In this document: piece by piece, positions 15,900-16,345 of the stretch
Position numbering within the stretch: the stretch's first letter is position 1
Layout of the letters: the number at the start of each line of letters is the position of its first letter
NCBI GenBank assembly: GCA_964187785.1
Contig: OZ076409.1
Location: 66,156,001-66,220,000, forward strand
Length of the DNA: 64,000 bases
Reading direction: 5' to 3'
From: Amphiscolops sp. MND2022
Lineage: Eukaryota
Notes under the pieces: generated by a model
Told to the model about the DNA's origin: nothing
Seen by the model: only the letters and a program-made list of their open reading frames with translations
The model's database searches: none
Position numbers and translations under genes: made by a program

Positions 15900-16345
15900 A
15901 TCTGGTAGTCATTGCATAGACATCTAGCTCGTTCGTTGTATAGATTCGGAGTTGTATTTCTGAGTAGGCAAAGACGTCTTTGGAAGTCTTCTAGTTCTGA
16001 CGTTTCTCGTAGCATAGAGACAGTCTTGACATTATTCATTTTGGCGTAGGCTTTTAGTGTTTCCAGCGATTGGACTAAGATTTGTGGGTCGATTTTGTCC
16101 GACATCAGAGTCTTTCGATTTAGCTTTAGTGATTAGGACGTATATAAATCGCTTTAGGGTCACATCCCAGTAGGGTATTGTGTCGCCTTTTTGTGGTTTC
16201 TGTTGCGAGATTGTTTTAATGAAGGTATGTTTGTTAAAATTTCTTTAGAGAAGCTTTTGGCTGCCTTTAGATCAGCCGGGACAAAGATGATAATAGAGTC
16301 TGGTCTGCTGAGTATAGTTGTAGAATTTCCTGCTTCTATTCTGAT
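15900..16345 (-). other. TARG1/OARD1 (Poa1p-like) macrodomain inside pol
   Basis: Rejoined across frameshifts: DSIIIFVPADLKAAKSF...KGDTIPYWDVTLKRFIYVLITKAKSDKIDPQILVQSLETLKAYAKMNNVKTVSMLR, collinear with TARG1 DSLAHCISED / RYIYYLITK / LQKSLEAMK / GVTDLSMPR. Confidence 0.75.

Follow-up and report, generated by a model that had tools for sequence, protein, structure and literature searches.

A macrodomain of the TARG1/OARD1 type lies between the protease and the reverse transcriptase (RT) in the Pol polyprotein of a Ty3/gypsy retroelement, element 1, found within the 64,000-nucleotide stretch of Amphiscolops DNA analyzed here (the window). It is a real cargo domain and had not been annotated before. 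Our preferred reading, which we consider about 60% probable, is that this macrodomain derives from TARG1 and sits in the Pol of an env-bearing element, that the copy in the window is broken, and that its lineage is a pseudo-enzyme in which the pocket is blocked but the fold is kept.

Element 1 is an 18.6-kb LTR element on the minus strand, bearing a fusion-glycoprotein gene. Its 5′ LTR (19718 to 21482; minus strand, as for all features of element 1 below unless stated) and 3′ LTR (2889 to 4795) are 97.6% identical over 1763 aligned bases when the pair is compared, and they are bordered by a 4-base target duplication, GTAC. A 49-base tandem repeat occurs within the LTRs (3509 to 4224 and 20336 to 20855), with unequal copy number between the two. 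Pfam domains follow the Ty3/gypsy order of gag, protease, RT, RNase H, and integrase. The gag gene (17218 to 18685) is spread over three frames and ends just past a TTTAAAC heptamer (17230 to 17224), which we take to be a slippery site; the gag and pol frames overlap there, suggesting that Pol is likely made via a −1 frameshift. Pol comprises an aspartic protease (16859 to 17125; PF13975, E = 6.9e-07), a conserved and probably β-rich region between protease and macrodomain (16421 to 16798), the macrodomain, the matched part of the RT with RNase H (14320 to 15270; PF00078, PF17917, PF17919), and an integrase with zinc finger part, core, and C-terminal SH3-like part, interrupted by stops (11764 to 13326; Pfam). 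The region at 16421 to 16798 was recognized by sequence conservation, and its model was unusable (pLDDT 43); its look-alikes are unnamed eukaryotic Atlas clusters, and BLAST gave no match to it in element 2. With regard to a dUTPase at this post-protease position, Pfam found no match in element 1 and a weak, subthreshold match in element 2.

Downstream of pol, element 1 carries a fragmented env-like gene for a Monjiviricetes-type fusion glycoprotein (6458 to 8619; PF24664, E = 2e-09, in two open reading frames [ORFs]), which makes it an env-bearing element. An accessory ORF with a TRAF/MATH domain (4881 to 5879; PF21355, E = 4e-12) lies between env and the 3′ LTR; it contains a weak PAM2-like motif and is possibly a captured signaling adaptor. 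Between pol and env, an antisense ORF of 237 codons (10377 to 11090, plus strand) had no Pfam match; the surrounding region, from 8700 to 11700, otherwise contains no assigned feature. Elsewhere in the window, element 3 has a weak match to the Monjiviricetes-type fusion glycoprotein family (62609 to 63028, plus strand), and Pfam identified a C-terminal exon of sortilin at 23058 to 23564.

The macrodomain of the window copy was delineated by mapping an intact relative, P0002, onto the window, which yielded four segments in three reading frames. Segment 1 (16205 to 16363), in the same frame as the protease ORF, runs from the first strand to the helix that follows an altered HC-motif loop. Segment 2 (16104 to 16208), placed by the relative-to-window alignment, carries an ITK lysine equivalent to TARG1 Lys84. 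Segment 3 (15977 to 16105) spans a long helix, a strand, and an altered diphosphate loop with Glu at the Gly123 and Asp125 positions, and segment 4 (15916 to 15981), in the RT frame, holds the end of the last helix and the last strand. The window copy lacks an equivalent to part of the last helix. The pieces are identical to P0002 at 125 of 140 residues. This mapping upholds most of what the original prediction had read from the window: a TARG1-like macrodomain between protease and RT, hidden across three frames, with the ITK lysine present and ETSELED in place of the GCGLD loop. The single 16-bp insertion near 16100 to 16115 that it had held responsible gives way to three breaks, near 16205, 16105, and 15980, and an in-frame stop downstream of segment 4 (15900 to 15898). 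With three frame breaks and this stop, the window copy is dead; gag and env of element 1 are also broken in frame. All three breaks in Pol fall within about 230 bases (15980 to 16205), inside the macrodomain, and Pol keeps single frames for 4.2 kb downstream and 0.9 kb upstream of it; this clustering may reflect chance or a local hot spot.

Searches of Pfam and the PDB with single-frame pieces of the window copy found no match, and the internalin rows returned by a single-piece search were noise. Joined with X at the breaks, however, the pieces scored 42.0 bits against a TARG1-like profile built from 92 proteins, all of them outside the family of element 1; the best of 500 shuffles, 439 of which reported a score, reached 4.6 bits. 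Outside element 1, neither family profile rose above −2.7 bits in six frames over the whole window, so elements 2 and 3 lack the domain, as the original prediction had said. Element 3, whose RT is up to 41% identical to that of the family, is the nearest relative in the window without a macrodomain. It has about 120 bases where the family has about 200 residues, which fits the absence of the domain there.

The second half of the protease ORF, used as a query, picked out 16 proteins among 714 candidates, two of them (P0001 and P0002) at 89 to 90% identity and 14 at 50 to 55%. P0001 and P0002 are intact and encode the macrodomain in one continuous frame. The best PDB sequence match of the P0001 macrodomain was human TARG1 (E = 3.9e-10, over 77 residues without gaps); the macrodomain of P0010, a sister protein with intact motifs, matched human TARG1 at 2.1e-27 and DarG at 1.3e-06. 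Pfam Macro was detected in the 14 sister proteins, mostly below the cutoff (3 of 16 above it), and had no match in P0001 or P0002, so routine annotation would overlook the domain. An AlphaFold model of P0001 residues 206 to 360 (pLDDT 92.4) shows a compact macro fold without the extensions of MacroD. TARG1 occupied all of the top eight rows of a Foldseek search with this model (TM scores of 0.79 to 0.83 by query), and VIA-align placed TARG1 first (Z = 20.5, rmsd 2.0, 141 residues aligned) and DarG second (Z = 17.8). The alignment behind the model held 61 rows, mostly homologues with intact motifs, so the model leans to their fold and is not independent of them. An Atlas feature search leaned toward macrodomains, with scores of 0.90 to 0.91, and was taken as a lead only. 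Judged by these matches, the domain is a TARG1/OARD1-type macrodomain by descent, with a predicted fold to match.

The relatives fall into two forms. In an early set of 86 proteins, the domain could be aligned in 51, of which 31 have TARG1 motifs and 20 an altered active site. In the final set, 221 of 319 proteins span the domain (the other 98, fragments or proteins without it, were left out) and were classed by profile score: 21 are altered, 108 belong to the family and keep the motifs, and 92 are homologues outside the family. Positions follow TARG1 numbering, for which the PDB alignment was shifted by one; this agrees with G43, I44, and G123 (PMC5928194) as well as with K84 and D125 (PMC9411070). 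The Gly123 position is Glu in 20 of the altered sequences and Asp in the other, compared with Gly in 101 of 108 motif-intact members and in all 92 outside homologues. Glu stands at the Asp125 position throughout the 21 altered sequences, and Lys84 and Asp37 are kept in every one. These sequences also share Ile for His32, Phe for Cys33, Pro for Ser35, and Leu for Pro118, and the Met40 position changes together with these. Thus, the HC-x-S motif, in which His32 and Ser35 have a role in TARG1-type macrodomains, is missing throughout the altered form. Among the motif-intact members, counts that include decayed copies, His32 is retained in 101 of 108, Lys84 in 99, and Asp125 in 105. These sister subfamilies are likely active erasers, to judge by their residues.

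TARG1 acts on ADP-ribosylated protein and DNA (PMC9411070, PMC8120803), and its catalysis is ascribed to a Lys84/Asp125 dyad (PMC9411070). The laboratory mutant TARG1-G123E is described as catalytically inactive, more stable than the wild type, not stabilized by ADP-ribose, and equal to the wild type in RNA binding (PMC5928194). The natural change in the altered form is identical to G123E in 20 of 21 sequences, the remaining one having Asp; unlike the laboratory mutation, it is fixed and is accompanied by further changes in the pocket. Lys84 is kept, but at the other sites that bear on activity, Asp125, Gly123, and HC-x-S, the residues of the window's lineage depart from those of a predicted eraser. 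The ETSELED-type loop is a fixed trait of the lineage, as its sequences indicate, and not damage to the window copy. The original prediction had allowed for either a binder or an inactive variant, and had suggested packaged protection of Pol or cDNA. Since an acid at Gly123 abolishes binding of ADP-ribose and catalysis in TARG1, both a binder and packaged protection are unlikely for the window's lineage, and the inactive variant fits better. Packaged protection is plausible only for the motif-intact sister subfamilies, the predicted erasers.

Within the family, the two forms differ most in the macrodomain itself. Measured over 56 pairs drawn from 15 of the 17 aligned proteins, identity between forms is 37% in the macrodomain, 61 to 67% in its flanks, 81% in RT, and 91% in RNase H. 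A quick tree built from 71 domains groups the family together on one branch (support 90, not starred) and likewise unites the altered form (support 100), which has a long stem of length 0.76. The RT tree could not place the root between these forms. Because outside homologues keep the motifs, we infer that the change ran from intact to altered. Since 20 of the 21 altered sequences are near-copies, they amount to two independent lineages, not 21. The second is P0213, found among the best 150 of 3447 library matches, which is the sequence with Asp at the 123 position. P0213 is identical to P0001 at 64 of 142 residues (45%) without a gap, and both share the derived loop IFVPADLKP; the distance from motif to motif is constant across all 21 altered sequences. 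The upstream flank of P0213 is identical to that of P0001 at 42 of 62 residues and to that of P0010 at 41 of 62, and this equal nearness places the altered state at about the age of the family's main split. A search for a longer P0213 polyprotein found none, which is weak evidence. A gap-free, constant length at 45% identity suggests that the altered fold is under selection, as far as two lineages and protein sequences alone can indicate. A phage search gave no match, and no related loci were found among the viral contigs or metagenome contigs searched.

We propose the following scenario. A functional eraser of the TARG1 type would have been captured by the family's ancestor at a site between protease and RT. 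Translated as part of Gag-Pol, the macrodomain would enter particles, in which the version with intact motifs could strip ADP-ribose from Pol proteins or from nucleic acid of the element. In the window's branch, an acidic residue would then have replaced Gly123 and the HC motif would have disappeared; these changes likely put an end to catalysis and to the binding of ADP-ribose. The altered domain likely persists as a stable, folded module with a nonenzymatic role, for which RNA binding by surface charge, together with spacing of protease and RT, seems most plausible. Net charge is alike in both forms (medians of +4 versus +5, the altered form not being set apart), so charge gives the RNA-binding role no direct support.

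Alternatively, the altered domain may be a passenger that has lost any function and retains only its fold, a folded module being harmless where a misfolded one is not, and a clean in-frame loss being rare. The macrodomain is the fastest-changing part of Pol in the altered lineage (90% identity, versus 95 to 97% for the other parts), the conservation between P0213 and P0001 lies mostly in core strands and helices, and element 3 does without the segment. The domain changes quickly in the motif-intact group as well, however (79%, among the fastest parts there), so speed of change by itself is no proof of lost function; its gap-free persistence since about the main split of the family, and a derived loop common to both altered sublineages, also argue for a retained role. 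We consider the passenger explanation improbable on balance, if the most serious competitor to a pseudo-enzyme with a role.

Somewhat less probable again is continued activity: the altered domain might act as an enzyme or a reader through a remodeled pocket, turning the retained Lys and the Glu that replaces Asp125 to another substrate. A remodeled active site is possible in that Lys84 and Asp37 are fully kept and Asp125 has changed only to another acid. The class is mechanistically flexible, its catalytic residues varying among members: DarG lacks the Asp, and SCO6735 is active without either residue of the dyad (PMC9411070). That members work without the dyad makes the pseudo-enzyme reading less certain, and the effect of G123E, applied here by analogy, is known from one human protein. 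Against a remodeled enzyme stand the invariance of Gly123 in the outside homologues, the block to binding that an acid there causes in TARG1, and the joint change of the His32, Cys33, Ser35, Met40, and Pro118 positions, and we continue to favor the pseudo-enzyme. A resemblance by chance, or a host gene fragment in one dead copy, for which the failure of single pieces and of Pfam on P0001 and P0002 might speak, is refuted by the in-frame domain in many intact relatives, the match to TARG1, and the shuffle control.

TARG1-like domains also occur in unrelated gypsy elements, elsewhere in Pol, probably through separate captures. A library-wide search gave 3447 matches at E values up to 0.001; the best 150 were listed, and 47 of these, mostly the longer ones, were scanned with Pfam. 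Four of the scanned 47 contain RT or RNase H: in P0281 and P0309 the macrodomain is C-terminal to the integrase, and in P0316 and P0268 it follows RNase H, with two matched stretches in P0316 that lie ahead of the integrase. By eye, and without confirmation from Pfam, the macrodomain lies behind an integrase-tail-like stretch in P0216, of which P0215 is the sister in the quick tree, and behind a protease-end-like stretch in P0254. In an RT tree with P0281, P0309, and P0316 set as the outgroup, the RTs of these three lie far from that of the element 1 family. When 16 retroelement macrodomains were compared with 22 others, a single origin of the 16 was rejected at a p-AU of 0.02; the test relied on a quick tree containing one long branch and on selected rows, and three rows were assigned once the first tree had been seen. 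Repeated capture of TARG1-like domains by gypsy elements is therefore likely, though not proven. In P0229, P0232, P0251, P0260, P0298, and P0312, TARG1-like domains are fused to DNA ligase, ligase-3-type BRCT, and NADAR domains.

Among known systems, human TARG1 (OARD1, C6orf130; PDB 4J5Q, 4J5R, 4J5S, 2L8R, and 2LGR) is the best match both by sequence and by predicted fold. The sister subfamilies share with it the HC motif, Lys84, and GCGLD with Asp125; unlike TARG1, the element version sits inside a retroelement polyprotein, and in the window's lineage Gly123 has given way to an acid and Asp125 to Glu, and the HC motif is missing. The DarG macrodomain (PDB 5M3E, 5M3I, and 5M31) belongs to the same macrodomain class, as its Z score of 17.8 and the kept position of the catalytic Lys reflect, but its sequence match is far weaker (E = 1e-6 for the motif-intact form and none for the altered form) and no toxin partner was seen. 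Polyproteins of RNA viruses (alphavirus nsP3 and coronavirus nsp3) also contain a macro fold, with lower Z scores of up to 13.6. RNA virus macrodomains belong to a different macro class from TARG1; they are known counter-defenses, and nonbinding derivatives exist among them, such as the coronavirus SUD domains. Some endogenous retroviruses of fish are described as carrying macrodomain ORFs, citing Basta et al. 2009 (PMC4977317). These epsilon-like elements are likewise retroelements with a macrodomain; as presented there, they are Retroviridae with macro as additional reading frames, whereas here the domain lies in a Ty3/gypsy Pol. Gypsy elements are reported to capture chromatin domains (bioRxiv 10.1101/2021.11.30.470311), and the sole mention of macro there is macroH2A. 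Titles and the opening lines of abstracts revealed no TARG1-type domain in a gypsy Pol; repeat databases, subscription papers, and supplements may hold some.

A broader proposal, which we advance tentatively and hold to be less likely to be right than wrong, is that animals use ADP-ribosylation against LTR retroelements and that gypsy elements captured TARG1 repeatedly, in at least three places in Pol, as a counter-defense packaged in particles; the family would then include both an active eraser and a natural derivative with a blocked pocket, which would have taken on RNA binding or the part of a decoy. If true, repeated capture of TARG1-type erasers in gypsy Pol would be evolutionary evidence that ADP-ribosylation restricts retrotransposons. 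The family of element 1 also provides a natural pair, one form with intact motifs and one with a blocked pocket, in a nearly identical polyprotein context, through which enzymatic and nonenzymatic roles of the fold may be separated.
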